DNA from: Copranaerobaculum intestinale
GTDB lineage: Bacteria > Bacillota_I > Bacilli_A > Erysipelotrichales > Erysipelotrichaceae
NCBI RefSeq assembly: GCF_009831105.1
Contig: NZ_WUUQ01000006.1
Coordinates: 62,659-94,658 of the forward strand
Reading direction: 5' to 3'
Length of the DNA: 32,000 bases
The notes below the pieces were generated by a model that was given only the letters and a program-made list of their open reading frames with translations, searched no databases and had not been told where the DNA came from. Positions 2,965-21,687 of this stretch are shown here, piece after piece. The first letter of the stretch is position 1. Each line of letters starts with the position of its first letter. A program made the translations under genes and the position numbers.

Positions 2965-3046
2965 AAAAAAGAATGCCAATAACATGCGCCTCCGTTTATT
3001 GTTGTCCAACTTACGGGGTGCACTTCATAATGGCATTCTTTTTTTA
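2965..3046. terminator. Compound hairpin between convergent genes (possible bidirectional terminator)
   Basis: AAAAAAGAATGCCA (2965-2978) pairs with TGGCATTCTTTTTT (3031-3044). The 52-nt interior folds partly on itself (GCGCCTCCGT...ACGGGGTGC). An A-run lies on one side and a T-run on the other. The hairpin overlaps the cyclodeaminase stop codon. Confidence 0.45.
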
Positions 3047-3679: not shown

Positions 3680-3680
3680 A

Positions 3681-7831: not shown

Positions 7832-7834
7832 AGG

Positions 7835-9364
7835 TTATACCTCCTTTAATGTACAAGTATGTTCAACTGCCGCTAACAGGGATCCGTCATGGATCATGTC
7901 GGCAATCTGATGAATAAATGGATAGAATACCGTATCCTCTTCAAAGAACGGCACGGCCTTGCGAATGGTTTCGTAGGCTGGCTGAGTACCTTTTCCGAGT
8001 TTTCCGTTTTCCTGCAAATCAATAGCCTGAGTACTGCACAGCATTTCCATTGCCAATACATCCTGAGTATTTTTCAGAATATCTTGCGCTTTGCGGGCAG
8101 CGATCGTTCCCATTGATACATGATCTTCCTGATTAGCACTGGATGGAATGGAATCCACACTGGCCGGATGGGCGAGCACCTTGTTTTCAGAAACCAATGC
8201 CGCAGCCGCATACTGAACGATCATAAAGCCGGAGTTCAGGCCGCCCTTCGGCGTTAAGAAAGCGGGAAGATCATTGTTGAGCGCCGGATTGACCAAACGT
8301 TCCACACGGCGTTCTGCAATATTCGCCAGCTCGCTGATCGCAATGCCTAAATAATCAAATGCCATCGCAACACTTTCGCCGTGGAAGTTGCCTCCGGATA
8401 TCGCGTATTCATCTTCCACAAACAAAATGGGATTATCGGTTACGGAGTTGATCTCAATTTCCAGCTTTTCAACGACATGGCGGATTGCATCCTTGCAGGC
8501 ACCGTGTACCTGTGGCGCACAGCGAAGTACATAAGCATCCTGTACGCGTTTCTCTCCTTGATTGGTAATGCGTTCACTGCCGTCCAATAAATCTCTTACG
8601 TTATCCGCGGTGTGAATCTGCCCGCTATGCGGACGCACCGCGTGGACTCTTGCATCAAAGGCATCACGGATGCCTTCCAGCGCCTCCATGCTTAATGCCA
8701 CCGATACATCGGCTAGCTTACTAGCCTGCAGTGCATCATAAGCGGTGATACAGCCAACTGCACACATAGCCTGCGTGCCATTGATCAGCGATAATCCCTC
8801 TTTGGCGCTTAATACGACCGGTTTGATGCCTGCCGCTTCCATCGCTGCTTTTGAAGGCACCCTTTTTCCGTTCAGGAATGCTTCCCCTTCACCAATTAAA
8901 GTGAGCGCCATATGGGCAAGCGGACATAGGTCGCCGGACGCGCCCAAGCTGCCTTTCTCATATACCAAAGGATATACATCACGGTTCAGCATATTCACCA
9001 GGGTTTCTAAGGTGGAAAGCCGAATTCCGGAGAATCCTTGTGAAAGTGAGTTGATCCGCAGCAGCATCATCGCTCTTACGATTTCTTCGCTGAAGGGATC
9101 ACCGACCCCAACCGCATGCGACATAATCAAATTGCGCTGCAGTTCTCCGGTTTCTTCTTTTGATATCAATGTATCGGAAAATTTACCGAAACCGGTTGTG
9201 ATTCCATAACTTACCTTGCCCTGTTCGACAAAGTCTTTTACCATTTGTTCCGCCTTGCGGATTTTTTCTTTTGCCTCATCGGATAAGGCAATTCTGCGGC
9301 GATTTCTCGCTACGTCAATTACATCATCCAAAACCAGATGATGACCGTCTATCATCAATTCCAT
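7835..9364 (-). CDS. hutH: Histidine ammonia-lyase
   Basis: The MIO-forming triad Ala-Ser-Gly is present in GSLGASGDLCPLAHM, with aromatic-amino-acid-lyase family sequence throughout. I prefer the ATG at 9364 (MELMIDGHH...) because AAAGGAG sits 7 nt upstream. The ORF-track start at 9427 adds 21 unlikely residues. Confidence 0.95.
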   Translation of the reverse strand: MELMIDGHHLVLDDVIDVARNRRRIALSDEAKEKIRKAEQMVKDFVEQGKVSYGITTGFGKFSDTLISKEETGELQRNLIMSHAVGVGDPFSEEIVRAMMLLRINSLSQGFSGIRLSTLETLVNMLNRDVYPLVYEKGSLGASGDLCPLAHMALTLIGEGEAFLNGKRVPSKAAMEAAGIKPVVLSAKEGLSLINGTQAMCAVGCITAYDALQASKLADVSVALSMEALEGIRDAFDARVHAVRPHSGQIHTADNVRDLLDGSERITNQGEKRVQDAYVLRCAPQVHGACKDAIRHVVEKLEIEINSVTDNPILFVEDEYAISGGNFHGESVAMAFDYLGIAISELANIAERRVERLVNPALNNDLPAFLTPKGGLNSGFMIVQYAAAALVSENKVLAHPASVDSIPSSANQEDHVSMGTIAARKAQDILKNTQDVLAMEMLCSTQAIDLQENGKLGKGTQPAYETIRKAVPFFEEDTVFYPFIHQIADMIHDGSLLAAVEHTCTLKEV

Positions 9365-9386
9365 AATATCAGCTCCTTTAGCTTTT

Positions 9387-9416
9387 ATTATACTTGTTTT
9401 TAGGCCGGATTGACAG
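9387..9416 (-). promoter_or_regulatory. Candidate sigmaA promoter of the hut operon
   Basis: On the minus strand: CTGTCA, 18 nt, TATAAT (plus-strand ATTATA at 9387-9392, TGACAG at 9411-9416). The -10 element is about 25 nt upstream of the hutH ATG. Confidence 0.35.
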
Positions 9417-9452
9417 TGGGAAACCACAGGAAAATCACTGCGAATTTACGGG

Positions 9453-9467
9453 ATCATAAATTATGAT
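9453..9467. promoter_or_regulatory. Perfect 7-1-7 palindrome ATCATAA-A-TTATGAT (candidate operator)
   Basis: Read directly from the sequence. Located in the 280-bp divergent hutH/GRE control region. The core CATAAATTATGA recurs at 9571-9582. Confidence 0.4.
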
Positions 9468-9570
9468 AAAAATTTTGTATTTAAGTGTTCATTTATGTTC
9501 GATTTGCGGATTTATGTGGTCTGTAATCAAATTATTTTGTCATATATATGTTCGGTTTCATAGGATAACA

Positions 9571-9619
9571 CATAAATTATGAATGCCTATTGACGGTAAA
9601 TGTTTGATTGTGTTACTTT
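9571..9619 (+). promoter_or_regulatory. Second CATAAATTATGA motif abutting a weak sigmaA-like promoter for the GRE operon
   Basis: CATAAATTATGA (9571-9582) lies 8 nt upstream of TTGACG (9590-9595). After an 18-nt spacer comes TG-n-TACTTT (9611-9619), a poor -10 with 3 of 6 matches. No GG-N10-GC sigma54 element is present in 9365-9644. Confidence 0.3.
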
Positions 9620-9644
9620 GAAATCGTAAAAGGAGGAATACCCT

Positions 9645-12062
9645 ATGAAATGTTTAAGTTTTCAGCCTAAAAATAACGACTGCGATTTTGAGCGCATCGC
9701 ACGTTTTCAGAAAGACATGAATATACGTACTGCTACCCTTTGTGCCGAACGTGCCGAGATCATCACGCGTTCGTTTCAGGAAACAGAAGGAGAGCCGATC
9801 GTAATTCGCCGTGCCAAGGCGTTTGCGGATATCTTGAAAGAAATGACCATCTATATTCAGAAAGATTCCTTGATTATCGGCAATCAAGCCTGCCGTAATT
9901 TTGCGGCTCCGGTTTTCCCGGAATATTCCTATGATTGGGTAATTGAGGAAATGGATGAATTTGCGCACCGCAGCGGTGACAGCTTTCAGGTTGATGAAGC
10001 TACGAAACAGCGGCTCCGTGCTTTAGAGGGCTATTGGATCGGCAAGACGCATAAGGATGAAGTATTGAAAAATCTTCCTTTGATCAATCGTGAAGCGGAA
10101 AAACAGAGTGTATTGCATCGGGGCGGCATCAGTATGTCCGGTGACGGCCATATTATCCCTAATCATGATTTTGTGTTGAAATATGGTTTTGGCGGTATGC
10201 GTGATATAGCGAAAGAGAAGCTGACACATGACGATCTTACCGAAGAACAGCGTGATTTTTATCAGGCATCGATACTTGCGATGGAGGGTGCTTTAACGTA
10301 TATCAAGCGTTTTTCTGAGCTGGCGCTTCAGGAAGCAAAGCACTGTACTGATGAAAAACGTGCCAAAGAGCTGGAAGCACTTGGTGAAATGTTTGCGACC
10401 TTCATGGAAGGCGGCGCCCGCAGTTTCCATGAAGCGGTTGAGGCAGTATATATGACACACCTGCTGATGATGATTGAAAGCAATGGACATTCTTTCTCTT
10501 TCGGGCGGTTTGATCAGTATGTCTGGCCGTATTATCAAGCAGATATTGAATCTGGAAAACTCTCAAAAGAGAAAGCGCTGGAAATCATAACGCATTTCTT
10601 TATCATGACAAATTCTTTGAATAAGATTCGTCCATGGGATCATACCCAGTACAGCGGCGGCTATCCGTTGTATTCCAATCTGATGGTCAGCGGCTTAAAG
10701 CCAAACGGAGAGGATGGAACCAATGATATTTCCTACCTGTGTTTAGAAGCGATGAATTTATCCATGCTTCCTGAGCCAAACTTATCTGTACGCTTTCATG
10801 AGCATACTCCGCATTCTTTGATGAAGGATGCGGCGAAGCTGATCCGCAAAGGATTCGGCATGCCTTCAATTTTCTGCGATGAAGTATGCATTCCGGCGAT
10901 GCAGTCACTGGGACTTGATTTAGCGGTAGCCCGCGATTATGCGTCAATGGGCTGTGTCGAAACGGCGATTCCGGGACGCTGGGGACATCGCGCAACCGGC
11001 ATGACCTATGTGAATTTCGGAAAAATTCTGGAGCTTGTCATGAATAATGGTATGGATCCGGAAAGCGGAGTCCAGCTGGTGAAGCTGAACGGTGAACCCG
11101 GCCGTGACATCCACTATGAAAGTTATGAGGAAATCTGGCAGGCTTGGGAAAAGCTGCTTGCGTTCTATACCGGTTTGGCGGTGGACTGCGATCTGGTCTG
11201 TGATCGTTCCTTAAAGTATCATGATGCGGATGCATTTGCTTCCTGTACGGTAAACAGCTCCTTAGCGCGCGGTAAAACCTTGAAAAACGGCGGTGCAGAA
11301 TATGACTATGTATCCAGCTCCAGCATCGGAATGTCGGTGGTCGGCGATTCCTTGGCGGCCATCAAAAAGCTGGTCTTTGAGGACAAGAAACTGACCTTGC
11401 AGCAGATCCGCGATGCGATGGATCACAATTTTGAAGGCCTGGAAGGCGCGAAGATTCGAAAGCTTTGCAAGCAGGCACCGAAATTCGGCAATGATGATGA
11501 CTATGTCGATGAAATTGTTGCGGATGTTTATGAATCCTATCTGAAGCTGCTGCCGAGCTTTAAAACAGATCGTTATGGAAAAGGCCCAATCGGCTGTACC
11601 TATACGATGTCAACATCCAACATCACCTCCTATGTGCCGAACGGCTTTGAAGTAGGGGCAACCCCGGACGGCCGTTTAGCTACCAAACCGCTGAACGAAG
11701 GGGCATCACCTTGCCTAGGCGCTGATAAAGAGGGACCGACGGCTGTGATCAATTCCATTTCCAAGCTGCCTAATAAGCGCATGGCGGGAGGACAGCTGCT
11801 GAATATGCGCTTCTCTCCGAATGCGTTGGACGGTGAAGAAAACTTAGAGAAATTTACCCGGTTCATGGAAGCGGGACGTAACAAGAATATTTTTCATAAT
11901 CAATTTAATATCGTTGACTCGGAAACCTTGAAAAAGGCCAAAGCACATCCGGAAGAATATCCGGATCTGATGGTGAGAGTAGCCGGCTATTGCGCGTTAT
12001 TCTCAACCCTGATGCCGGAAGCGCAGGATGCGATCATCGCACGGACGGAACTGAGCTGGTAA
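9645..12062 (+). CDS. Glycyl radical enzyme, PFL2/eliminase class (YbiW/PflD-like; predicted sugar-phosphate C-O lyase/dehydratase)
   Basis: 805 aa. Glycyl-radical fingerprint RVAGYCALF with Gly781 (GGC at 11985-11987), 24 residues from the C-terminus. The Cys loop MGCVETAIPG has a single thiyl Cys437 (10953-10955) and Glu439, as in GRE eliminases, not the Cys-Cys pair of pyruvate formate-lyase. AGGAGG lies 8 nt before the ATG. Confidence 0.9.
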   Translation: MKCLSFQPKNNDCDFERIARFQKDMNIRTATLCAERAEIITRSFQETEGEPIVIRRAKAFADILKEMTIYIQKDSLIIGNQACRNFAAPVFPEYSYDWVIEEMDEFAHRSGDSFQVDEATKQRLRALEGYWIGKTHKDEVLKNLPLINREAEKQSVLHRGGISMSGDGHIIPNHDFVLKYGFGGMRDIAKEKLTHDDLTEEQRDFYQASILAMEGALTYIKRFSELALQEAKHCTDEKRAKELEALGEMFATFMEGGARSFHEAVEAVYMTHLLMMIESNGHSFSFGRFDQYVWPYYQADIESGKLSKEKALEIITHFFIMTNSLNKIRPWDHTQYSGGYPLYSNLMVSGLKPNGEDGTNDISYLCLEAMNLSMLPEPNLSVRFHEHTPHSLMKDAAKLIRKGFGMPSIFCDEVCIPAMQSLGLDLAVARDYASMGCVETAIPGRWGHRATGMTYVNFGKILELVMNNGMDPESGVQLVKLNGEPGRDIHYESYEEIWQAWEKLLAFYTGLAVDCDLVCDRSLKYHDADAFASCTVNSSLARGKTLKNGGAEYDYVSSSSIGMSVVGDSLAAIKKLVFEDKKLTLQQIRDAMDHNFEGLEGAKIRKLCKQAPKFGNDDDYVDEIVADVYESYLKLLPSFKTDRYGKGPIGCTYTMSTSNITSYVPNGFEVGATPDGRLATKPLNEGASPCLGADKEGPTAVINSISKLPNKRMAGGQLLNMRFSPNALDGEENLEKFTRFMEAGRNKNIFHNQFNIVDSETLKKAKAHPEEYPDLMVRVAGYCALFSTLMPEAQDAIIARTELSW

Positions 12063-12064
12063 GT

Positions 12065-12973
12065 ATGGTACAGGGACGAGTTTCCAAACTCCAGCGTTAT
12101 GCGACCAAGGATGGACCGGGCCTTCGCACGACCGTATTTATGACCGGATGCAACCTTCGCTGTAAATGGTGTGCCAATCCGGAGATGCTGAATGCAAAGG
12201 GCGGTATGTTCTATTATAAGGAACGCTGTCAGCACTGTGGAATTTGTGTCCAGATGGCGGCTTTGGGAACGATCACATTTGCGGAAATCGGATGTGCAAT
12301 CGACCGGGAACACTGCGGTGATCTGGAGCCGATCAAGGACGCTTGTCCGTTTGAAGCTTATGAAAGCACCAGTCAGCTCATGGACTGTGAAACGCTGGTG
12401 CATAAGCTGCTACGGGATCGTGAATTCTATGAGAACAGCAATGGCGGAGTTACCTTCTCCGGCGGAGAAGCCGGACTGCAGGATGATTTTCTGTATGCGT
12501 GTGCCGCCAAGCTGCGCCAAGCGGGCATCCATACCGCTTTGGATACGGCAGGATTGCTGGAGCCTCAAAGATTGTTAAGGCTTTGTCAGGTATTTGATTT
12601 GGTGCTGTATGACATCAAAGCATTTGACGCGGATATTCATAAACGTTGTACCGGTGTTGACAATACTTTGATTTTAGAAAATGCCAAGCTGCTGTGTAAA
12701 CAAAAGATGCCGATGATCGTACGGATGATCGTTGTGCCTGGCATGAATGATGATCCCGCGGACATAACCGCCCGCCTGCAATTCGTGAAATCCTTGGGAT
12801 CAAGTGTGAAACAGGTCGATTTACTGCCTTATCATAACCTTGGCGAAGGAAAATATGATAAACTTGGTATGACATATGAATTACATGATATTGGAAAAAT
12901 GAGTGATGAACGCATGGAAGCCATCAAGCAGGAAGGTCAAAAGCTCGGCCTGCATATGACGATCGGCGGATAA
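12065..12973 (+). CDS. Glycyl-radical enzyme activating enzyme (radical SAM)
   Basis: GPGLRTTVFMTGCNLRCKWCANPE carries the CX3CX2C radical-SAM cluster. The extra Cys-rich ferredoxin-like insert (CQHCGIC ... DACPFEA) is typical of non-PFL GRE activases. The ATG at 12065 is 2 nt after the GRE stop; the ORF-track start at 11990 lies inside the GRE gene. Confidence 0.9.
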   Translation: MVQGRVSKLQRYATKDGPGLRTTVFMTGCNLRCKWCANPEMLNAKGGMFYYKERCQHCGICVQMAALGTITFAEIGCAIDREHCGDLEPIKDACPFEAYESTSQLMDCETLVHKLLRDREFYENSNGGVTFSGGEAGLQDDFLYACAAKLRQAGIHTALDTAGLLEPQRLLRLCQVFDLVLYDIKAFDADIHKRCTGVDNTLILENAKLLCKQKMPMIVRMIVVPGMNDDPADITARLQFVKSLGSSVKQVDLLPYHNLGEGKYDKLGMTYELHDIGKMSDERMEAIKQEGQKLGLHMTIGG

Positions 12974-12988
12974 CTGGAGGGAATGGAC

Positions 12989-13663
12989 ATGAAATTATTA
13001 TTGGATACAGCGAATTTAGAAGACATCAAAGAGGGGATGGAGTACTATCCCATGATCGGCGTTACGACGAATCCTTCGATCTTAGCGAAAAGCGGCGAGC
13101 CGATGTTTGACCATCTGCGGAAAATCCGTCAGATCATCGGCAGAGATAAGCTGTTATTTGCCCAGGTAATGGGTGAAACCTATGAGGAAATGATGGCGGA
13201 TGCGAAACGCATGGTGGAAGAGGTCGATGAGGATCTGCACATCAAGGTGCCGATGACGCAGGAGGGCCTGAAAGCGATCAAGGCGATGAAAGCCCAGGGC
13301 TATAAAGTGCTGGCCACAGCGGTATTCTCTGCCCAGCAAGCGATGCTTGCGGGAGCGGCCGGAGCCGATTTTGTCGCACCGTATATCTCCCGGATGATGC
13401 AGGCGGGCATGGATGCCTATGCGATCATTGAGGAGATTGCGATCGCCTATGAAGAACACAGCATCGAAACCAAGATCATTGCGGCCTCTTTTAAGCATAG
13501 TGTGCAGGTTGAAAAATGTATTTTGGCAGGTTCTCCTTACATTACCGCTACGCTGCCGATCTATAAGCAGATGCTGGCAGAACCGCTGACCGATGTTGCG
13601 GTCAAAGGATTTCAGAGTGACTGGCAGAATGCTTTTGATGGCGTGCTGCCGCACAAAATGTAA
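12989..13663 (+). CDS. fsa: Fructose-6-phosphate aldolase-type (Fsa/TalC subfamily 5 transaldolase-fold) enzyme
   Basis: MKLLLDTANLEDIKE...GVTTNPSI N-terminus. Schiff-base Lys in HIKVP (Lys86, AAG at 13244-13246). APY motif with Tyr132 (TAT at 13382-13384), where true transaldolases have SPF. Lys86 and Tyr132 have the same spacing as E. coli FsaA Lys85 and Tyr131. GGAGGGA sits 7 nt before the ATG at 12989; the ATG at 12983 is too close to the SD. Confidence 0.85.
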   Translation: MKLLLDTANLEDIKEGMEYYPMIGVTTNPSILAKSGEPMFDHLRKIRQIIGRDKLLFAQVMGETYEEMMADAKRMVEEVDEDLHIKVPMTQEGLKAIKAMKAQGYKVLATAVFSAQQAMLAGAAGADFVAPYISRMMQAGMDAYAIIEEIAIAYEEHSIETKIIAASFKHSVQVEKCILAGSPYITATLPIYKQMLAEPLTDVAVKGFQSDWQNAFDGVLPHKM

Positions 13664-13670
13664 CAGCTAA

Positions 13671-13709
13671 AACGGCAGGATGTCAAAAAGTGACATCAGC
13701 CGTTTTTTT
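13671..13709 (+). terminator. Rho-independent terminator of the GRE-activase-aldolase operon
   Basis: AACGGCAGGATGTCA-aaaag-TGACATCAGCCGTT (one bulge) followed by TTTTTTT. Confidence 0.8.
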
Positions 13710-13715
13710 ATATTC

Positions 13716-13745
13716 TTGTAGTCGGTAAAAAAAGCGTGCTATAAT
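13716..13745 (+). promoter_or_regulatory. SigmaA-type promoter for the LevR-like regulator
   Basis: TTGTAG (13716-13721), 18 nt, then TGc-TATAAT (extended -10; TATAAT at 13740-13745). It lies about 40 nt before the ATG at 13787. Confidence 0.5.
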
Positions 13746-13786
13746 GCAGATACAAAAATTTGATACACGAGCGGAGGACGGTCGAT

Positions 13787-16492
13787 ATGAAAAATGAAGA
13801 GAAAATCTATCTGGGCCTGTGTGAGCTGAGTGAAAAAGCAATTGCTTCATTGAGCGACGGCGTTACCACCAGTGAATTGGCAGATCATTTAAAAATGGAT
13901 CGGACTCTGGTTTCCCGCCACTTGGGAGTGCTGGTACAAGCAGGAAAAGCGGTAAAAGCAGGAAGCAAACCGATTTATTACCGCAGTTCTTCCAGCGTTC
14001 CCGCTTCCGATGCAGTGAAAACCGATGTTTTTGCCCAGCTGATCGGTTTTAACGGTTCGCTGTTGACCGCGGTAGAGCAGTGTAAATCCTCGGTGCTGTA
14101 TCCCAATGGCGGACTGCCGCTTTTGATTACCGGCTCCAGCGGTGTCGGCAAGAGTTATCTGGCCAACCTGATTTTTGAATATGCAAAGAATGAGGGAATC
14201 ATTGAAAAGGATGCAAAATGTGTGATCTTTAACTGCGCTGATTACGCCAACAACAAGGAGCTGCTTTCCAGTAAGCTGTTCGGTTATAAAAAAGGAACCT
14301 TTACCGGAGCGGATGAAGATAATGATGGTGTGATCGCGCTGGCCGACGGCGGTTATCTCTTTTTGGATGAAGTACACCGGTTGTCTCCCGAGGGTCAGGA
14401 AAAGCTGTTCCTGCTGCTGGATAAGGGAATTTATCAGCGCATGGGTGATAAAAATTATCAAAGTGTGCAGGTACGAGTGATCGCGGCAACAACCGAGGAT
14501 CCGAAAACTGCCCTGATCGACACTTTTCTGCGCCGGATCCCGATTCAGGTGCATCTGCCTGATTTTGCATCGCGAAACATCAGTGAGCGGCTGGAGTTGA
14601 TACAGCTGTTTTATGCCCAGGAGAGTCAGACCTTTCATAAGTCGATTCGAATATCAAAGAAGGTTGTGAACTACCTTTTATCCTGCGCGCTGCTTGGCAA
14701 TATCGGTGCGCTTCGCAATATCATCAAGGTGAGCTGTGCCAACGCTTCACGCAAAAATCGGGAAGCGCTGGTGCAAGTGGATATTGAAGATATTGCCCGG
14801 GAGCTTCCTCAGCATGTCGAAGTGCATGAGTTCACCAGCGCCGATTTAGAAATCGGCAGCAGCTTCGCAAGATCGCCGATCACGCCTTCCTCACTTCCGA
14901 ATGTGAAGGAGGTCATTGATATCATTACCGATATTTACGAACAGCTGAAAGCATGTCAGCGGCTCGCCATCAGTGAAGAGGAAGTAGAAAAATGCATTCG
15001 TTTGGATGTGAACCGTATTTCTGACGTGCTGTATTTTCATTCTAATAACAATGCCCAATCACTGTACTATTCATTATTCGCAACCCATGTGGAAAACGGC
15101 CTGAAGCTGTTGGAAAAGACATACGGCTTGAAATATTATGGCAATACGGTGAAAACCTTAAGCAGTGTATTAAATACCTTCAGTAAGGAACCGCTGTTTC
15201 AAAGCGATGAATATGTAGCGCTGTACCGCAAGACTTTAGAGTTGATCAAACATCGCAGCTATAAATATAATTTCGTTACCAACCGACTGCTGGAATATCT
15301 GCGCGATTCCTTTCATTATCAGTACGGAGTTTTAGAAGAGCTGTATTTGACGCTGTATATTTATTCATCGGTAGTCGATCATCACAGCGATATCAATGCA
15401 ATCATCGTGGCTCACGGGTATTCTACCGCGAGCAGTATCGCCTCGGTCGTCAATCAGATGCACAGCAATTATATCTTTGAATCGTTTGATATGCCGATCG
15501 ATATGGAACCGCAGGATATCGTTAAGGAAATCTGCGAATACGCAAAGCACTTAAATAAGGATAAGGATACGATATTCTTAGTGGATATGGGTTCGCTGTT
15601 TGAAATCTACTCATTGGTCAAGGACAGCTTTAACGGTGAAATGGTTGTTATTAACAACATTACGACGCAGCTGGCTCTGGGGGTGGGAAGCATGATCAAT
15701 CAGGGCCGCAGTCTGATTGATATCGTGGACAGTGTTGTGCGGGACTGCTCGATCAAATACAAGTATTTTGAACGCAAGGGCAAAAAGCGGGCAATCGTCA
15801 CTACCTGCGCATCCGGAATCGGCATTGCCAATAAAATACGCGATATGATTAAAAAGTGTGTGGCCGGAGAGAAACAGAATATTGAAATAATTTCCTGTGA
15901 TTATTTCACCCTGAAAAATATGGGCCGCAACAGTGAAATATTTAAAAAATATGATGTGCAGCTGATTATCTCGACCTTAGGCTTAACCATCGAGGGTGTA
16001 TCTACTATTTTATTTTCTGATTTGTTCTCCCAGAAAAATGAAGAACGAGTACGGGATGTATTCGCAAAGCTGTACGGAGAAGAGAACCTGCATCAGATCA
16101 TCAACAATCTCATGAAGATGCTGACGCTGGAAAATATCATTTCCCGCTTGATCATATTGAATCCCAACCGAGTGATCGAAAATGTCGATGCGATCCTCAG
16201 CGACATTGAAAACTGCTTTGCTTATCAGCTTGATTCCAGTTTAAAGCTGACGCTATACATTCATATCGCGATCATGCTGGAACGGTGTATCCTATCCCGT
16301 AACGAGCTGCAGGAGCAGCCCTACAGCGGGAAAGAAAGCGTTGCGGATATCAATAAGATGCGCCGTATCTTTGAAAAACAGCTGACAGACTTCGAAGTAC
16401 ATATTCCCGATCATGAGCTTGCCCTTGTTTTAAGTATCATCAAGGAGTATGACAACACTGCGGCAGCTTCGTTATCGGATGAGGATGAATAA
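13787..16492 (+). CDS. Sigma54-dependent transcriptional activator with PTS regulation domains (LevR family)
   Basis: N-terminal wHTH. AAA+ module with Walker A GSSGVGKS, Walker B GGYLFLDEVHRL and a sigma54-contact loop GTFTGA (14294-14311). PRD1. EIIA(Man)-like domain IIVAHGYSTASS (His543). EIIB(Gat)-like domain VTTCASGIG (Cys674). PRD2 LTLYIHIAIMLER (His826). The ATG at 13787 has GGAGG 9 nt upstream; the ORF-track start at 13760 is a TTG. Confidence 0.9.
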   Translation: MKNEEKIYLGLCELSEKAIASLSDGVTTSELADHLKMDRTLVSRHLGVLVQAGKAVKAGSKPIYYRSSSSVPASDAVKTDVFAQLIGFNGSLLTAVEQCKSSVLYPNGGLPLLITGSSGVGKSYLANLIFEYAKNEGIIEKDAKCVIFNCADYANNKELLSSKLFGYKKGTFTGADEDNDGVIALADGGYLFLDEVHRLSPEGQEKLFLLLDKGIYQRMGDKNYQSVQVRVIAATTEDPKTALIDTFLRRIPIQVHLPDFASRNISERLELIQLFYAQESQTFHKSIRISKKVVNYLLSCALLGNIGALRNIIKVSCANASRKNREALVQVDIEDIARELPQHVEVHEFTSADLEIGSSFARSPITPSSLPNVKEVIDIITDIYEQLKACQRLAISEEEVEKCIRLDVNRISDVLYFHSNNNAQSLYYSLFATHVENGLKLLEKTYGLKYYGNTVKTLSSVLNTFSKEPLFQSDEYVALYRKTLELIKHRSYKYNFVTNRLLEYLRDSFHYQYGVLEELYLTLYIYSSVVDHHSDINAIIVAHGYSTASSIASVVNQMHSNYIFESFDMPIDMEPQDIVKEICEYAKHLNKDKDTIFLVDMGSLFEIYSLVKDSFNGEMVVINNITTQLALGVGSMINQGRSLIDIVDSVVRDCSIKYKYFERKGKKRAIVTTCASGIGIANKIRDMIKKCVAGEKQNIEIISCDYFTLKNMGRNSEIFKKYDVQLIISTLGLTIEGVSTILFSDLFSQKNEERVRDVFAKLYGEENLHQIINNLMKMLTLENIISRLIILNPNRVIENVDAILSDIENCFAYQLDSSLKLTLYIHIAIMLERCILSRNELQEQPYSGKESVADINKMRRIFEKQLTDFEVHIPDHELALVLSIIKEYDNTAAASLSDEDE

Positions 16493-16513
16493 TGTCACAC
16501 ATAATCTATTAAG

Positions 16514-16552
16514 CTGTCACAGATGATGAAAAGTGATGTTTATCTGTGACAG
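16514..16552. promoter_or_regulatory. 9-bp perfect inverted repeat CTGTCACAG-N21-CTGTGACAG: candidate enhancer (UAS) for the LevR-like activator
   Basis: Read directly from the sequence. Its centre is about 95 nt upstream of the predicted sigma54 start site. A further half-site, TGTCAC, is at 16494-16499. It could instead fold as a hairpin at the 3' end of the regulator mRNA. Confidence 0.45.
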
Positions 16553-16563
16553 GTAATGAAAAA

Positions 16564-16586
16564 AGACCGATAAAATCGGCCTTTTT
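16564..16586 (+). terminator. Small terminator hairpin after the regulator gene
   Basis: AGACCGAT-aaa-ATCGGCCT (one A.C mismatch) followed by TTTTT. Confidence 0.45.
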
Positions 16587-16602
16587 CATCTTTTCAGCGA
16601 GT

Positions 16603-16618
16603 TGGCATGTTTTTTGCT
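16603..16618 (+). promoter_or_regulatory. Sigma54 (-24/-12) promoter of the PTS operon
   Basis: TGGCATGTTTTTTGCT. GG is at 16604-16605 and GC at 16616-16617, which is exactly the consensus TGGCAC-N5-TTGCW spacing. It lies about 28 nt upstream of the EIIA ATG and directly downstream of a sigma54 activator gene. Confidence 0.8.
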
Positions 16619-16645
16619 TCAATATAGGCAGAAAGGAGAAATTCT

Positions 16646-17062
16646 ATGTACAGTATCATCGTTATGAGCCATGGGGACATGGCAAACGGGCTGAAAGACA
16701 CGATGATGATGATCCTCGGGGAACAGGAGGATATCTATTTTATCAGTTTCACGCCAAGTGACAGTATCGAGGATTTTCGTAAACGGGTAAATGTTATTTA
16801 TCATTCGATCGAGGAAGACAGACAGGTGCTGTTTCTTACCGATCTATACGGGGGAACACCCAACCATGTGGCAACCGCTATGAAAATCGCTGAGCCGGGT
16901 CGAGTAGAGGTGCTCAGCGGCGTGAATATGCCTTTACTGATGGAAGCAACATTAGGAAAAGCGAAAGTTCTGAGTGACATTGTCGAGCACTTATTAGAGC
17001 AGGGACGCGGAGGCATGATCCGCATTGAGCCTGCCCTTGATCAAAACGAAGAGGATGAATAA
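16646..17062 (+). CDS. PTS mannose/sorbose-family EIIA component
   Basis: 138 aa. MYSIIVMSHGDMANG carries the phosphorylatable His9 in the canonical position. GGAGA lies 7 nt upstream. Confidence 0.9.
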   Translation: MYSIIVMSHGDMANGLKDTMMMILGEQEDIYFISFTPSDSIEDFRKRVNVIYHSIEEDRQVLFLTDLYGGTPNHVATAMKIAEPGRVEVLSGVNMPLLMEATLGKAKVLSDIVEHLLEQGRGGMIRIEPALDQNEEDE

Positions 17063-17081
17063 TTAAGAAGGAGGAAGTTTC

Positions 17082-17864
17082 ATGGAAATTTCATTTTTGC
17101 AGATCATCTTGTTATCTGCATATGGTTTCATCGCTATCTGGGATGACTTGAATCCCGGATTCAAATTAGGTAAACCGGTTGTTGCCGGAATGTTTGCCGG
17201 TCTCATCATGGGTGATATCCAAATGGGTCTGTTGGTCGGCGGTACGCTGCAGCTGATGATTCTGGGTGTCGGCACATATGGCGGTGCATCCATTCCCGAT
17301 TATATGACCGGTGCCGTAGTAGGTACTGCCTTCGCAGTTTCTTCCGGAAAAGGTCTGGAGTATGCGCTGGCAATCGCTGTTCCGGTGGGGCTGTTGATGG
17401 TTCAGCTGGATGTATTGGGAAGATTTTGTAATACTTATTTCCAACATATGGCGGATAAAGGCGCTGAGCAGCGCAACTACCGCAAGGTGGAACTGGGCAA
17501 TGTGCTCGGTATGATTCCCTGGGGGCTGTCCCGTGCCCTGCCGATATTCCTGGCACTGTTCTTCGGACAGGATATTGTAAAAACTTTACTGGATAATTCT
17601 CCTGAATGGCTGATGAACGGCTTAAAGACAGCCGGCGGTCTGCTGCCTGCGTTAGGTATTGCCATTCTGCTGCGCTACATGCCGTTAAAGACATACTGGA
17701 TGTATGCCATTGCCGGCTTCGTAGCTGCTACGTATTTGAAGGTGCCGATGCTGGGTGTAGCCCTTGTCGGTCTGGTTGCTGCCGGCGTTGCTTACGCACG
17801 TTCGGATGAACCGGCGGTGTCAGCTGTAGTAAATGAAGGAGGTACGATCGAAGATGATGAATAA
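17082..17864 (+). CDS. PTS mannose/sorbose-family EIIC component
   Basis: 260-aa polytopic membrane protein with family-typical sequence (ILLSAYGFIA..., GTLQLMILGV, LLPALGIAILL). GAAGGAGG lies upstream. Confidence 0.9.
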   Translation: MEISFLQIILLSAYGFIAIWDDLNPGFKLGKPVVAGMFAGLIMGDIQMGLLVGGTLQLMILGVGTYGGASIPDYMTGAVVGTAFAVSSGKGLEYALAIAVPVGLLMVQLDVLGRFCNTYFQHMADKGAEQRNYRKVELGNVLGMIPWGLSRALPIFLALFFGQDIVKTLLDNSPEWLMNGLKTAGGLLPALGIAILLRYMPLKTYWMYAIAGFVAATYLKVPMLGVALVGLVAAGVAYARSDEPAVSAVVNEGGTIEDDE

Positions 17865-18663
17865 TAGTAATGTCTGTGATAAAAAAATTCGTCGTAAGGT
17901 GTTCCTGCGTTGGTTCTTAAACGGTGAATCAGGCTGGAACTATGAAAAAATGCAGGGCTCTGGATACTGCTATTCTATGATGCCGGCATTAAAAGAAATC
18001 TATAAGGATGATCCGGATGCGCTTCAGGCTGCGGTAAAAAATCATCTTCAGTTCTTCAACACAACGCCGCATACAGCCAATATTATTTTAGGTGTCAACA
18101 TGGCGGTTGAACAAACCGTGAAACAGGACGGTAAAGATGCTATTGCCAGTATCAAAACCGGTCTGATGGGTCCGTTAGCCGGAGTTGGCGACTCCTTATT
18201 CGGAGTAATCATTGATACTGTATTAGGCTCTATCGCTGCTTATATGGCCCTGGAAGGCAATCCGATGGGATGTTTGATCTGGGTATTGGTCAGTGCGATC
18301 GGCATTACGGCACTGCGCTATGCTATGCTGGAAATCGGTTATAAGCAAGGTACCGATGTCGTTGCGAATATCTCTACTAAAATGAAAAAGATTACGGAAG
18401 CTGCCAGCATCCTCGGTCTGACGGTTGTCGGCGCTTTGATCCCTACCGTAGTCAATGCGAAGGTACCCTATGTATTTGAATGGGGAAAAGTAAAAATGCC
18501 GGTTCAGGATATGATCGATTCGATCATGCCAAACCTGCTTCCGGTACTGTTTGTCGTATTGATTTATTGGCTGCTGTCGAAAAAAGGAATGAATTCCACA
18601 AGAGTGATTATTTTCATTATCGTATTTGCGATTTTGTTCAACTTCTTAGGAATTCTTGGATAA
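17854..18663 (+). CDS. PTS mannose/sorbose-family EIID component
   Basis: The family-typical N-terminus (RKVFLRWFLNGESGWNYEKMQGSGYCYSM) matches the EIID RSxxxQxxxNYERMQ-type motif. The ATG at 17854 is 11 nt after GAAGGAGG and overlaps the EIIC stop. The ORF-track ATG at 17833 lies within the SD region. Confidence 0.9.
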   Translation: MMNNSNVCDKKIRRKVFLRWFLNGESGWNYEKMQGSGYCYSMMPALKEIYKDDPDALQAAVKNHLQFFNTTPHTANIILGVNMAVEQTVKQDGKDAIASIKTGLMGPLAGVGDSLFGVIIDTVLGSIAAYMALEGNPMGCLIWVLVSAIGITALRYAMLEIGYKQGTDVVANISTKMKKITEAASILGLTVVGALIPTVVNAKVPYVFEWGKVKMPVQDMIDSIMPNLLPVLFVVLIYWLLSKKGMNSTRVIIFIIVFAILFNFLGILG

Positions 18664-18666
18664 TGT

Positions 18667-19146
18667 ATGGAAGGTATCGTACACGTAAGAATTGATGACC
18701 GTCTGCTGCATGGACAAGTCTGTGCCTTTTGGTCAAATGCCCTTAAGTTAACAAGAATTATGGTGGCAAATGATGAGGTTGCCGTCGATGAAATGCAGAA
18801 GTCGGTACTGCGCATGGCGGCGCCTGCCGGCGTCCGTACATCCTTGATTTCACTGGAAAAAGCTTCTGCCAACATTCTGGCGGAGAAATACAAGGGACAG
18901 CGCGTACTGCTGATTTTAAAAAGCCCGAAAGATGCTTTGCGCTTAATCGAGATGGGTTTGCCGATCAAGTCGCTCAATGTCGGCAATATGGCAAACCGCC
19001 CGGATACGACCCAGTATAAACGTTCTATCTCACTGACAAAATCGGAATACGATGACTTCATGAAACTGCATGAGCTGGGAGTTCAAATGACGGCACAGAT
19101 GGTTCCAGAGGAAGCGGTCAGTGATCTGATGGAGTTCCTGAAATAA
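18667..19146 (+). CDS. PTS mannose/sorbose-family EIIB component
   Basis: VRIDDRLLHGQV carries the phospho-His15 of the IIB(Man/Lev) family. 159 aa. The start is 3 nt after the EIID stop. Confidence 0.9.
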   Translation: MEGIVHVRIDDRLLHGQVCAFWSNALKLTRIMVANDEVAVDEMQKSVLRMAAPAGVRTSLISLEKASANILAEKYKGQRVLLILKSPKDALRLIEMGLPIKSLNVGNMANRPDTTQYKRSISLTKSEYDDFMKLHELGVQMTAQMVPEEAVSDLMEFLK

Positions 19147-19163
19147 AAAAGAAAGGAAAGATC

Positions 19164-19877
19164 ATGAGAAATATCGGAAAACAATTTAATGATGCAATTA
19201 TCAACTGTTTGGAGCATATCGCTGACGGACAGGAAGAAGCAATCGCAAAAGCGGCGGAAATCATCGCCGATACGATTGAAAACGGGGGCATTGTGCAGTC
19301 GTTTGGTTCGGGACACAGCTATGGCAATGCGCTGGAGATCAGCGGCCGTGCCGGCGGTTTCATCCAGACGAAAATTATCAATGAGCCGTCCCGCGGAAAC
19401 TATGAGATGATCGAAGGAGTCGGTACGATTTTTATGAACCATCTCGATCTGCAGGTACAGGACTGCTTGATTATCATTTCCAATTCCGGACGTAATCCGT
19501 TGGGGATTGAAATGGCAATGGCGGCGAAAAAAATGGGCGTCAAGCTGATCGTCGTCACTGCTTATGATGTTGCTTCCCATTCAACATCCCGCCATTCAAG
19601 CGGTAAAATGCTGCATGAATTTGCGGATGTTATTCTGGATAACAAGTCAATTTTCGGGGATGCCTGCATCGAAGTAGCGGGACTGCCGGTGAAAGTCGGA
19701 GGTACTTCGCTGTATACCGGAAGCATGCTGTTAGACCGGGCAACGATGGATGCGATTGATATCCTGCTGGAACGAGGTGTGACACCGCCGCTGTTTATGA
19801 GTGCCAATGTGGATGGCGGACCGCAGTTCAACCAGAAATATCTGGATATGTATAAAGATCGTCTTCGCCGTTATTAA
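19164..19877 (+). CDS. SIS (sugar isomerase) domain protein, UPF0309-like, function unknown
   Basis: GGIVQSFGSGHSY...RAGG...LIIISNSGRNPLGIEMA...SRHSSGKMLHEFADVILDN matches the single-SIS UPF0309 pattern as I remember it. AGGAAAG is upstream. It is the last gene before the operon terminator. Confidence 0.75.
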   Translation: MRNIGKQFNDAIINCLEHIADGQEEAIAKAAEIIADTIENGGIVQSFGSGHSYGNALEISGRAGGFIQTKIINEPSRGNYEMIEGVGTIFMNHLDLQVQDCLIIISNSGRNPLGIEMAMAAKKMGVKLIVVTAYDVASHSTSRHSSGKMLHEFADVILDNKSIFGDACIEVAGLPVKVGGTSLYTGSMLLDRATMDAIDILLERGVTPPLFMSANVDGGPQFNQKYLDMYKDRLRRY

Positions 19878-19883
19878 AGGATC

Positions 19884-19910
19884 AAGAGGAACGGGAGTTC
19901 CTCTTTCTTT
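19884..19910 (+). terminator. Rho-independent terminator of the PTS-SIS operon
   Basis: AAGAGGAAC-ggga-GTTCCTCTT followed by TCTTTT. Confidence 0.75.
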
Positions 19911-20097
19911 TACCCTATTATGAAGTAGGAAATAGCTGAAAAGCTTCATGATATGATTAGCTATGACGATCATAAAGGGCGAATGATTCAACCTTTTTAT
20001 GAATTGAGCATGCTGAACATATTGTGCCGGGATGCGTACCGCATGGTATATACACGGGATAAGTAATGAATATTCATTAGGAAAGAAGGTTAACGAC

Positions 20098-20841
20098 ATG
20101 AAAGAAAAAATAATTGAAATTTGCTGCGTGAATTATAAAGACTGCATCCATGCTGAAATGTGCGGAGCGGATCGCATTGAATTGTGCGCATCCATGGCGG
20201 CCGGCGGACTGACCCCGTCGCTGGGTGTATTTCAAATGGTAAAGGAGCATGTCCATATCCCAGTCATGGTCATGATTCGTCCCCGCGGTGCTGGCTTCTG
20301 TTATCATGATTATGAGTTTGAGATCATGAAAAGGGATACGGAAATTTTTTTAAGCAATGGCGCCGAAGGGTGTGTCTTCGGTATCCTGAATGCGGATAAG
20401 ACAGTTGATCTGACACGTACTGAGGAACTTGCGGCAATCATTCATAAATACGGAAAGGAAGCGGTATTTCACCGTGCCTTTGATGAATGCCCAAATAAAG
20501 AACAAGCCATTCAGGAATTGATCGCATGCGGAATCGATCGGATCCTAACTGCGGGCGGTCAGGGAAATGCGGATGAGCATCTGGATGACTTAAAGCGCTG
20601 GCAGGATACATATGGTGAACAGATACAGCTTCAGGTATGCGGCAGTATCCGCAGTCATAATGCCATGTCTATTATGAAGCAAATTGGCTTTGATCAAGTT
20701 CATTCCGCCTGCCGCAGCTTTCATCAGGACGCCAGCGATGAACCGGCACAGAATTTGGGTTATCACAATGCGTATGATTGTGTCGATGAAACAGAATGCC
20801 GGCGTTTTGTGGACAGCCTGCGTAAGTCATGCGGTTGTTAA
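20098..20841 (+). CDS. cutC: CutC family protein (TIM-barrel; annotated 'copper homeostasis', true function unclear)
   Basis: IEICCVNYKDCIHAEMCGADRIELCASMAAGGLTPSLG matches the CutC N-terminal motif. About 247 aa from the ATG at 20098 (GAAAGAAGG upstream). The ORF-track start at 20032 adds 22 non-conserved residues. Confidence 0.8.
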   Translation: MKEKIIEICCVNYKDCIHAEMCGADRIELCASMAAGGLTPSLGVFQMVKEHVHIPVMVMIRPRGAGFCYHDYEFEIMKRDTEIFLSNGAEGCVFGILNADKTVDLTRTEELAAIIHKYGKEAVFHRAFDECPNKEQAIQELIACGIDRILTAGGQGNADEHLDDLKRWQDTYGEQIQLQVCGSIRSHNAMSIMKQIGFDQVHSACRSFHQDASDEPAQNLGYHNAYDCVDETECRRFVDSLRKSCGC

Positions 20842-20892: not shown

Positions 20893-21687
20893 ATGCAGGC
20901 AGCACAGCGGCGAATGGAAATTTTTGATGATCTGCAGCGTAATAAAACGGTGGAGGTCAATGCTTTAGCGAATCATTACAAGGTGACACCGATGACCATT
21001 CGCCGGGATTTGGCAATTTTTCAGAAACAGGGATTGGTCACAACCACATACGGCGGCGCTTATCTAAATCAGGGTGCAGCCGTGGAGCCTAATTTTGCCT
21101 TAAAGAGCTCCCAGATGAAAGAGGGTAAGCAGTTGATCGCAAGAAGGGCGGCGTCTTTGGTGAATGAGGGGGAAACCGTTATCATCGACTGCGGTTCCAC
21201 TGCTTATGAGCTGGCAAAGTATATAGCGCATATGAATATAACGGTCATAACCAATTCACTGCCGGTCATGAATATCCTAAAGGATCATGAATCAATTAAG
21301 CTGATCATGGCTCCGGGACAATATAATCATGTATCTGCCGGTGCACTCAGCACATACACGCTAAGCTTTTATCAGGAGCTTCATGCGGACAAGGTCTTTA
21401 TGTCCACACAGGGCTTTGATGAGCGCATCGGACTGAGCGTTCCGGATATGGAAGACGCGGCTGTAAAAAAAGCTATTCTGCAGGCAGCTCGGGAGAAAAT
21501 TTTGTTAGCGGATATGTCTAAGTATAAACGGGAATATCTGGCAGTACACGCACAGCTGGAAGACTTCTCGATCATTGTGAATGACGGGAAATTTCCAATC
21601 GATGTTCAGCAGCGGCTGGAAGCAAAAAATATCCGCGTATACACCGTTGACCCTGATCATGATATGATCGGACTTTCATCTCGATGA
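20893..21687 (+). CDS. DeoR/GlpR family transcriptional repressor
   Basis: N-terminal HTH (RRMEIFDDLQRNKTVEVNALANHYKVTPMTIRRDL) plus a DeoR C-terminal sugar-phosphate sensor domain (VIIDCGSTAYELAKY, ITNSLPV, ADKVFMSTQG). Confidence 0.9.
   Translation: MQAAQRRMEIFDDLQRNKTVEVNALANHYKVTPMTIRRDLAIFQKQGLVTTTYGGAYLNQGAAVEPNFALKSSQMKEGKQLIARRAASLVNEGETVIIDCGSTAYELAKYIAHMNITVITNSLPVMNILKDHESIKLIMAPGQYNHVSAGALSTYTLSFYQELHADKVFMSTQGFDERIGLSVPDMEDAAVKKAILQAAREKILLADMSKYKREYLAVHAQLEDFSIIVNDGKFPIDVQQRLEAKNIRVYTVDPDHDMIGLSSR

Follow-up and report, generated by a model that had tools for sequence, protein, structure and literature searches.

A candidate radical sugar-phosphate module with a GRE807-family glycyl radical enzyme in Copranaerobaculum intestinale, and the LevR/sigma-54 PTS unit beside it

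Does the glycyl radical enzyme (GRE) of Copranaerobaculum intestinale form one catabolic island with the phosphotransferase system (PTS) encoded next to it, or are the two neighbouring but separate units? The DNA analyzed here, referred to as the window, is a stretch of 32,000 nucleotides (nt) from this species (assembly GCF_009831105.1, contig NZ_WUUQ01000006.1, positions 62,659-94,658). All coordinates are window positions unless they carry a locus number, and features lie on the plus strand unless stated otherwise. The stretch contains an operon for a GRE, its activase and an Fsa-type aldolase, followed by genes for a LevR-type regulator and a mannose-class PTS. An initial annotation, made from the sequence alone, had interpreted positions 9645-19910 as a Gram-positive counterpart of 'anhydroglycolysis', with substrate delivery by the adjoining PTS. 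The reading that we favour, with a probability of about 0.55, is that the GRE, activase and Fsa genes together with a deoR gene form an 'anhydroglycolysis'-type radical sugar-phosphate module that is separate from the adjoining LevR-PTS unit. We infer the same GRE-activase-Fsa mechanism as proposed earlier, while the adjoining PTS may or may not deliver the substrate.

To our knowledge, YbiW and PflD are the only characterized sugar-opening GREs. A YbiW-YbiY-FsaA pathway based on a 1,5-anhydroglucitol-6-phosphate C-O lyase was reportedly described in E. coli by Ma et al. in 2024 (JACS 146:26187; doi 10.1021/jacs.4c07718). In that species, ybiW-ybiY are located next to fsaA and pflD-pflC are located in the frw cluster near fsaB-gldA, as the initial annotation had correctly stated. 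It was also in line with the literature on the chemistry, according to which YbiW and PflD are ring-opening C-O lyases that act on 1,5-anhydroglucitol-6-phosphate (AG6P) and 1,5-anhydromannitol-6-phosphate (AM6P) (PMC13450708, PMC12441222).

The glycyl radical enzyme and its family

The GRE (9645-12062, 805 aa) matched the PFL-like and Gly_radical domains of Pfam. Gly781 was found within the motif RVAGY, and Cys437 and Glu439 within GCVE, exactly as first annotated. Among the NCBIfam models the protein matched only the broad TIGR01774 (PFL2-3 subfamily) and no equivalog model. A protein search returned relatives of approximately 807 aa that were 73-79% identical, from Erysipelotrichaceae, [Enterobacter] lignolyticus, Caproiciproducens and Treponema, and we coined the name GRE807 for the family of ~807-aa proteins that includes the window GRE. 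Genome and metagenome scans added members from Phytobacter, Klebsiella, Enorma and 80 metagenome contigs (68-78% identity); the single-protein genome scan gave only 5 close loci, and the rest were obtained with an alignment-based metagenome scan. In total, GRE807 was observed in Erysipelotrichaceae, Oscillospiraceae, Coriobacteriia, Enterobacteria and termite-gut contigs, one of which is named Treponema; the termite-gut origin of many metagenome contigs was judged from the contig names. None of the 5,426 E. coli genomes scanned contained GRE807, the sole nucleotide-level similarity being a 9% stretch that matched ybiW. The conservation of 68-79% across phyla suggests one fixed function for GRE807.

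The window GRE is 37.9% identical to E. coli YbiW, 36.9% to the glycerol dehydratase (GDH) of C. butyricum and 34.0% to PflD. Comparison with solved structures using HMMER gave the highest score for YbiW (585 bits), followed by GDH (521 bits), diol dehydratase (513 bits) and PflD (464 bits). Several features were shared exclusively by the window GRE and YbiW-type sequences: the motif SGD.H at the site of the dehydratase motif NGVGH, a Cys-loop extension GC[VI]E[TV]A..G[RK]WG[HY]R.TGM with the same indel pattern, a six-residue insert YG[KR]GP.G at residues 644-649, and the motifs TS.I...VP.G and GG.LLN. PflD, unlike GRE807, contains neither this insert nor the WG.R.TGM loop. In a neighbour-joining tree (787 columns, 300 bootstraps), GRE807 was monophyletic with 100% support and the YbiW-like sequences with 99% support, and the two were sisters with 89% support. 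The phylogenetic placement called for earlier is thereby available as regards YbiW and GDH, since GRE807 is the sister of YbiW and falls outside GDH; the tree is without CutC, HypD, IslA and diol dehydratase. A YbiW orthology test indicated that the window GRE is orthologous to neither YbiW nor PflD and belongs to a clade of its own. Judged from its sequences, GRE807 is a distinct and very conserved sister family of YbiW. The data support classification of the window GRE as a putative eliminase/isomerase of the CXE type, for which YbiW, an AG6P C-O lyase, appears to be the nearest characterized relative.

The glycerol and propanediol dehydratases (C. butyricum DhaB1, R. inulinivorans PD) have the GRE fold and the CXE loop in common with the window GRE, at approximately 37-42% identity, and it keeps the equivalents of their His169, Ser283, Tyr340 and Tyr653. 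These similarities could indicate a true 1,2-eliminase, i.e. a dehydratase or deaminase of an amino-sugar-derived or polyol phosphate, without ring opening and with Fsa using fructose-6-phosphate made by NagB. The identity to GDH is about as high as that to YbiW, Tyr340 matches GDH and not YbiW, and canonical NagA and NagB, GlmM and phosphofructokinase genes adjoin the GRE gene in several loci. However, the dehydratase signatures NGVGH and GCVEPQ.PGK are missing from the window GRE, which has SGDGH and GCVETAIPGRWGHRATGM, while the YbiW-type indels are present. A grouping of GRE807 with GDH received 0% bootstrap support, and, unlike the dehydratase systems, the window has no microcompartment or diol-pathway genes near the GRE gene. 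Moreover, the placement of GRE807 genes next to fsaB-gldA and in tandem with YbiW-like genes (see below) fits a 1-deoxy-ketose route better. Based on these observations, we consider a 1,2-eliminase highly improbable.

The GRE operon and its proposed chemistry

According to the map of open reading frames (ORFs), the gene for a GRE-activating radical S-adenosylmethionine (SAM) enzyme (12065-12973, 302 aa) starts 2 nt past the GRE stop codon. The protein contains the motif CNLRCKWC (Cys29/33/36) and a Cys-rich ferredoxin-like insert, and matches TIGR02494. The third gene encodes an Fsa-type aldolase with a transaldolase fold (12989-13663, 224 aa). Fsa enzymes are distinguished from transaldolases by Tyr131, which is Phe in transaldolases, and by Gln59, which is Glu in transaldolases, and their phosphate-binding residues are Arg134, Ser166 and Lys168. 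In the window aldolase, the Schiff-base residue Lys86 lies within HIKVP and Tyr132 within APY, and the glutamine is Gln60. Thirteen catalytic, phosphate-binding and donor-pocket positions were checked (D6, T26, N28, Q59, K85, L107, T109, A129, Y131, R134, A165, S166 and K168 in FsaA numbering), and at each of them the protein has the residue found in E. coli FsaA and FsaB. Its best matches among solved structures were Fsa enzymes, and its NCBIfam scores were 216.2 for TIGR00875 (cut-off 245.95) and 212.3 for NF009299 (cut-off 214). The earlier assignments of the activase and of an Fsa-like aldolase thus hold.

The operon is preceded by a putative sigma-70-type promoter at 9590-9619, with TTGACG and TGT-TACTTT separated by ~18 nt. 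The orthologous GRE gene in locus L033, which is described below, is preceded by a conserved counterpart, ATTGACG...TGTTT..TTGTGTTA. An intrinsic terminator at 13669-13711, consisting of a hairpin (13679-13697) and a T run, closes the operon after fsa. The initial annotation had assumed that the GRE operon is gated by sigma-54 and PRD phosphorylation. In a pattern search of positions 9428-9644, 5' of the GRE gene, no sigma-54 -24/-12 match was found, and a terminator intervenes before levR; sigma-54 control of the GRE operon was rejected on these grounds. The regulator that travels with GRE807 is instead of the DeoR family (20893-21687, 264 aa) and is encoded beyond the stretch covered by the initial annotation. 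It is 41-61% identical to the GRE-adjacent DeoR proteins of loci L004, L006-L010, L028, L030, L033, L045, L097 and L121. It is orthologous to the regulator that accompanies GRE807 in other lineages, and DeoR, rather than sigma-54, is the likely regulator of the GRE operon, which revises the regulatory picture of the locus.

The adjacency of Fsa in several lineages, together with the fsaB-gldA placement in Enterobacteria, makes ring opening followed by aldol cleavage the best reading of the operon. In the proposed mechanism, the activase would install the glycyl radical at Gly781. In a 6-phosphorylated cyclic sugar ether, a thiyl radical at Cys437 would then take a hydrogen atom from a carbon that bears a hydroxyl group, with Glu439 serving as the base that deprotonates this group. 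The adjacent ring C-O bond would break to yield a 1-deoxy-ketose phosphate; from this, the Fsa-type aldolase would release glyceraldehyde-3-phosphate together with a C3 ketone, for instance hydroxyacetone. Expression of the operon would be controlled by DeoR. The system resembles YbiW-YbiY-FsaA of E. coli in that a GRE with a CXE Cys loop and YbiW-type indels and motifs is encoded next to an activase and Fsa. It differs by the DeoR regulator and by several pocket-region residues, and the partners of GRE807 include NagA, NagB, GlcNAc-type kinases and PTS. With the PflD-PflC/frw/FsaB-GldA system it shares the pathway logic of PTS, GRE, Fsa aldolase and reductase, but the frw PTS is of the fructose type whereas the PTS in the window is of the mannose class.

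The divergent hutH-GRE intergenic region contains direct repeats, ATTTATGTTCGATTT and ATATATGTTCGGTTT, at 9491-9505 and 9544-9558, and a 12-nt repeat, CATAAATTATGA, at 9455-9466 and 9571-9582. The repeats are candidate operators that could serve either the hut genes or the GRE operon, and they are not conserved in L033, which is without a hut operon. In the window, a complete histidine-utilization operon (3044-9427, minus strand; hutH, hutU, formiminotransferase, hutI and cyclodeaminase genes) is located between an ATP-binding cassette (ABC) transporter and the GRE gene. It is present in L121 and absent from the corresponding position in L033, where a block of AgaS-like SIS, mannose-PTS and Mga-PRD regulator genes is found upstream instead. 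This region is a hotspot for the gain and loss of catabolic blocks.

Gene neighbourhoods of the GRE807 family

ORFs were called in 91 loci and clustered, the clusters were labelled using the window proteins and family searches, and partners were counted within 8 kb of the GRE gene. The counts refer to the 36 GRE807 loci with at least 3 kb of flanking sequence on each side; the high-GC Enorma locus L009 was left out of the interpretation. An activase was identified in 30 of the 36 loci, a DeoR regulator in 19, NagA and/or NagB in 14 and Fsa in 12. Less frequent partners were a ROK or BadF-type kinase (10 loci), a second, YbiW-like GRE (7), a mannose-class PTS (6), GldA (6) and PflD (4).

The Enterobacteria displayed the gene order pflC-pflD-frwBC / ptsA-fsaB-gldA-DeoR-GRE807-activase-NagB-NagA, with the GRE807 module directly 3' of fsaB-gldA in Phytobacter, [Enterobacter] lignolyticus and Klebsiella contigs. 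The NagB and NagA proteins adjoining GRE807 exceed the equivalog cut-offs, and in L036, L038 and L039 NagA is followed by a NagE-type N-acetylglucosamine (GlcNAc) PTS EIICBA (score 656, TIGR01998 cut-off 553). The termite-gut contigs displayed the order ROK-YbiW-like-GRE807-activase-BadF kinase, i.e. a pair of GREs with a single activase. The YbiW-like GREs in these contigs are 51-52% identical to E. coli YbiW and are true YbiW orthologues, and the best solved relative of the BadF-type kinase is the MurNAc/GlcNAc kinase MurK. The Bacillota operon, by contrast, contains Fsa only, which fits a product that passes directly to the aldolase.

In the enterobacterial contigs L006-L008, L034-L039, L041 and L093 (L039:9058-17521), DeoR-GRE807-activase-NagB-NagA amounts to a second nag-like operon that includes a radical enzyme; it is inserted between gldA and katG/yijE, 3' of the fsaB-gldA genes of the pflD/frw cluster. 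In the termite-gut contigs L067, L072, L077, L090, L098 and L106, the YbiW-like gene (with a ROK kinase) and the GRE807 gene (with a BadF/MurK-like kinase) form tandem or divergent pairs that have one activase in common and often an ABC sugar transporter. GlmM-like genes adjoin the GRE807 cluster in two unrelated contigs (L044:1038-2372 and L097:14277-15626), adding to the amino-sugar association. CE4 deacetylase and VanW genes near the termite-gut GREs were considered as pathway members and rejected, as they probably reflect lineage-specific synteny.

These neighbourhoods have a bearing on whether GRE807 represents an ordinary case of the published pathway, with an AG6P or AM6P C-O lyase like YbiW or PflD. 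YbiW is its nearest characterized relative and shares its active-site motifs, the Fsa partner is conserved, and the pairing with a YbiW-like paralogue in termite-gut contigs resembles the presence of YbiW and PflD for two epimers in E. coli. Yet the identity to these enzymes is only 34-38%, several pocket-region residues are substituted, and the NagA, NagB and NagE-like genes of the same operons have no role in the catabolism of 1,5-anhydroglucitol or 1,5-anhydromannitol. In Phytobacter, PflD is encoded beside GRE807 and the genus also has a YbiW orthologue that is 92% identical to E. coli YbiW. The presence of all three sugar GREs in one genus suggests that GRE807 probably has a third specificity, and we find it distinctly unlikely that its substrate is AG6P or AM6P. 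The suggestion in the initial annotation that the substrate may differ from those of the E. coli enzymes was well placed, given 38% identity to YbiW and a genus with three GREs. GRE807 would then be a third family beside YbiW and PflD, with a testable context of Fsa, DeoR and nag-type genes. If its substrate is neither 1,5-anhydroglucitol nor 1,5-anhydromannitol, a new class of nutrients in the gut, perhaps amino-sugar analogues, would have to be added to the scope of radical glycolysis-like catabolism.

The recurrent nag-type partners of GRE807 point away from plain 1,5-anhydroglucitol and towards a GlcNAc-like analogue. In its specific form, GRE807 would be a third 'anhydroglycolysis' enzyme for a GlcNAc-like cyclic ether, such as a 2-acetamido- or 2-amino-1,5-anhydro-2-deoxyhexitol-6-phosphate. 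A GlcNAc-type PTS (NagE-like or mannose-class) or a MurK/NagK-like kinase would make the 6-phosphate, and NagA would strip the acetyl group from the 2-acetamido-1,5-anhydrohexitol-6-phosphate. Radical ring opening by the GRE would yield a 1-deoxy-2-imino-ketose phosphate, NagB would hydrolyze this to 1-deoxyfructose-6-phosphate and ammonia, and Fsa would cleave the 1-deoxyfructose-6-phosphate. The order NagA, GRE, NagB is speculative, as is the natural occurrence of such a compound. If true, the scheme would add a hitherto unknown anaerobic route, widespread in gut bacteria, for an amino-sugar analogue. We regard it as unlikely, because the steps through NagA and NagB are in tension with the Bacillota operon that contains Fsa only. 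No relevant literature was found on GREs linked to GlcNAc genes or on other anhydro-sugar GREs; the survey by Ma et al. (2024) may include GRE807 as 'YbiW-like'.

Three further observations concern individual loci. In an Erysipelotrichaceae metagenome-assembled genome, genes for a mannose-class PTS, two FrlB/AgaS-like SIS proteins and a PfkB kinase precede the GRE807 cluster (L010:3987-9881); this set is of the fructosamine/Amadori type and its PTS module differs from that in the window. In Caproiciproducens, a GRE of the 4-hydroxyphenylacetate decarboxylase type is encoded with its small subunit and activase 9 kb 5' of the GRE807 cluster (L028:1-1295). Finally, one protein in the collection (P0247, 1047 aa) combines a part that aligns with YbiW at 99% identity with HAD phosphatase (YbiV-like) domains. 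A fusion of ybiW and ybiV, by read-through or in the assembly, could account for this protein, which caused YbiV proteins to merge into a YbiW cluster.

The LevR/sigma-54 PTS block

A promoter-like site for levR (TTGTAG...TATAAT) is located 3' of the fsa terminator. The levR gene (13787-16492) encodes a sigma-54 enhancer-binding regulator of 901 aa with helix-turn-helix (HTH), AAA+ Sigma54_activat, EIIA-man and PRD domains. It is followed by a candidate LevR upstream activating site at 16514-16553 (inverted repeat CTGTCACAG-N21-CTGTGACAG), a short terminator-like hairpin for levR (16567-16579) and a sigma-54 -24/-12 promoter, TGGCATGTTTTTTGCT, at 16603-16618, which is the sole exact -24/-12 match in the window and lies 27 nt upstream of the IIA start codon. 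The PTS genes are arranged in the order IIA (16646-17062), IIC (17082-17864), IID (17854-18663) and IIB (18667-19146), followed by the gene for a NagS/MurQ-like SIS_2/UPF0309 protein (19164-19877, 237 aa) and a strong intrinsic terminator with a 9-bp stem and a T-rich tail (19884-19905). Terminators are thus present after fsa, after levR and after the SIS gene. The Pfam and NCBIfam matches and the -24/-12 element agree with the earlier description of a LevR-type regulator and a sigma-54-promoted IIA-IIC-IID-IIB-SIS operon. A sigma-54 gene (sigL/rpoN) is absent from the window.

The best regulator model for LevR was DagR (447 bits, cut-off 1400), and nothing relevant was found in the literature on DagR. 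The best NCBIfam similarities of the PTS subunits were to Aga (N-acetylgalactosamine (GalNAc)/galactosamine (GalN)) and mannose subunits, all under the curated cut-offs. As in the B. subtilis lev operon and the enteric Gfr and Dga operons, an AAA+/EIIA-man/PRD regulator is combined with an exact -24/-12 element, a palindrome and the order IIA-IIC-IID-IIB. The block differs from these operons by the NagS-like SIS gene within it and by the CutC-family gene (20098-20841, 247 aa) after it. Apart from the NagS-like passenger, which is unusual, and the CutC-family gene, the system is of a standard type. We infer that LevR-PTS-SIS-CutC (13787-20841) is a self-contained sugar uptake module of the hexosamine type.

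The three related Erysipelotrichaceae species differ in how this block is combined with the GRE operon. In L033, whose GRE is 79% identical to that in the window, the order is ABC transporter-GRE-activase-Fsa-DeoR-YtvI-epimerase...NagB; its flanking genes match those in the window at 60-80% identity, and there is no LevR-PTS-SIS-CutC block. Another contig from the same sample (L116) contains an orthologous LevR-PTS-SIS block, 67-85% identical, amid unrelated genes and in the order LevR-PTS-SIS-MFS-aminotransferase-CutC, where MFS denotes a major facilitator superfamily transporter. In L121-L123 (GRE 78% identical), the order is hut | GRE-activase-Fsa-DeoR-YtvI-epimerase-LevR-IIA-IIC-IID-IIB-SIS, with a block 66-89% identical to that in the window. 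The LevR orthologues of L116 and L121 are 66-67% identical to the window LevR, the sigma-54 promoter is conserved as TTGGCACGATATTTGCTT in L116 and TTGGCATGAGAATTGCTT in L121, and L121 has a palindrome, TCACACAT...ATGTGTGA, comparable to the inverted repeat 5' of the PTS in the window. In the window, LevR-PTS-SIS-CutC is located between fsa and deoR, which are contiguous in L033 and L121. The occurrence of the block near the GRE gene in two of the three layouts, at differing positions, suggests that it is a movable unit. No usable similarity was detected between the fsa-deoR spacer of L033 and the window junctions, so that the boundaries of the insertion are set by genes only.

These layouts can also be read as an integrated island at 9645-19910, in which the LevR/sigma-54 PTS imports and 6-phosphorylates the sugar for the GRE, the SIS protein performs an intermediate step and Fsa finishes the pathway. 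An orthologous LevR-PTS-SIS block has stayed within ~3-4 kb of the GRE gene in two of three species (the window and L121-L123) despite rearrangement, a mannose-class PTS occurs within 8 kb of GRE807 in L010, L028, L033, L045 and L097, the order in L045 and L097 is PTS | NagA/NagB-GRE-activase-DeoR, and in Caproiciproducens (L028), alone among these loci, a SIS_2 gene lies inside a PTS operon near Fsa-GRE-activase-DeoR. However, the two operons in the window differ in promoter type and have terminators between them, and in the sample of L033 the orthologous block is on another contig, amid unrelated genes. The mannose-class PTS near other GRE807 members are paralogues of different subfamilies, only ~30-37% identical to the window PTS, and a SIS_2 gene was present with the GRE gene at only 2 of 90 loci. 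The established mechanism of NagS and MurQ, moreover, depends on the anomeric carbon being free, which is not the case in 1,5-anhydro sugars (PMC12680351). The block after the epimerase gene in L121, its location on another contig in L116 and the distant paralogues elsewhere are at odds with the earlier view of LevR-PTS-SIS as a fixed partner of the GRE. We therefore consider an integrated island rather unlikely. The layouts lend moderate rather than strong support to a functional link between the LevR-PTS-SIS block and the GRE module, and none to control of the GRE operon by sigma-54; the PTS block may feed the GRE unit.

Several observations weigh against the reading that we favour, a ring-opening module separate from the PTS unit. 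As regards separateness, LevR-PTS-SIS is a neighbour of the GRE gene in two of the three species, which speaks against complete independence, and L033 and L116 come from one sample but not necessarily from one genome. As regards the chemistry, the near-equal identities to YbiW and GDH make overall identity undecisive for the affinity of the GRE, and the outgroup of the tree is thin. The likeness of the window GRE to YbiW has been demonstrated at the level of motifs. In the pocket region, GRE807 has Phe86 where YbiW, PflD and GDH all have Arg, and Tyr340 (Ser in YbiW), Cys411 (Asn in YbiW) and residues 557-566 also differ from YbiW. The NagA and NagB proteins encoded next to the GRE look canonical, which is hard to fit with a product that goes straight to Fsa. 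Finally, neither the ORF map nor family searches revealed a gldA-like gene in the window, unlike the E. coli systems and as the initial annotation had noted.

The best solved relatives of the SIS protein were NagS of Streptomyces (SCO4393; PDB 9EOL, 147 bits) and an uncharacterized structural-genomics protein. Eight of nine functionally tested NagS residues are kept (H53, S54, R64, E94, S119, S121, D179 and N228), while S91 is replaced by Asn. NagS, a relative of MurQ, converts GlcNAc-6-phosphate to 6P-chromogen I by dehydration, and its homologues outside Streptomycetaceae (~26-36% identity), including a clostridial one, have negligible or no activity on GlcNAc-6-phosphate (PMC12680351). NagS orthologues are at least ~59% identical, come from Streptomycetaceae and are encoded next to dmdR1; the window SIS has a different context, inside a PTS operon, and is a distant homologue rather than an orthologue. 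Since distant NagS homologues are essentially inactive on GlcNAc-6-phosphate, its substrate is probably a related phospho-hexosamine. Homologues that are 58-62% identical were found in a GalNAc-type locus with GH35, mannose-PTS, GntR, AgaS-like and NagA genes, and in a glycosaminoglycan setting where PL8 and heparinase-type lyases occur with KduI, KduD, KdgK and aldolase genes. Family membership and context point to hexosamine chemistry for the SIS protein. A simple aldose-ketose isomerase was rejected on account of its UPF0309 NagS/MurQ-like family, and the additional isomerization step once proposed for the anhydro-sugar route would give way to dehydration chemistry of the MurQ-related kind.

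The CutC-family gene travels with the LevR-PTS-SIS block and is the last gene of the block in L116 (L116:13112-13846, 62% identical). This suggests that the 'copper homeostasis' protein has a sugar-related rather than a copper-related role. The NagS/MurQ-like SIS protein and the CutC-family protein are thereby flagged as parts of a sigma-54-controlled PTS module.

The genes on the far side of deoR are shared more broadly. A YtvI-like membrane protein (21844-22917; TIGR02872 score 232, cut-off 198) and an aldose-1-epimerase-family protein (22975-23835) are encoded 3' of deoR in all three related species (L033:15354-17337; L121:14856-16848). Further downstream, near the GRE but outside its operon, is a gene for the glucosamine-6-phosphate deaminase NagB (24171-24890, 239 aa), which scored 285.9 against TIGR00502 (cut-off 236.9) and is 80% identical to its counterpart in L033.

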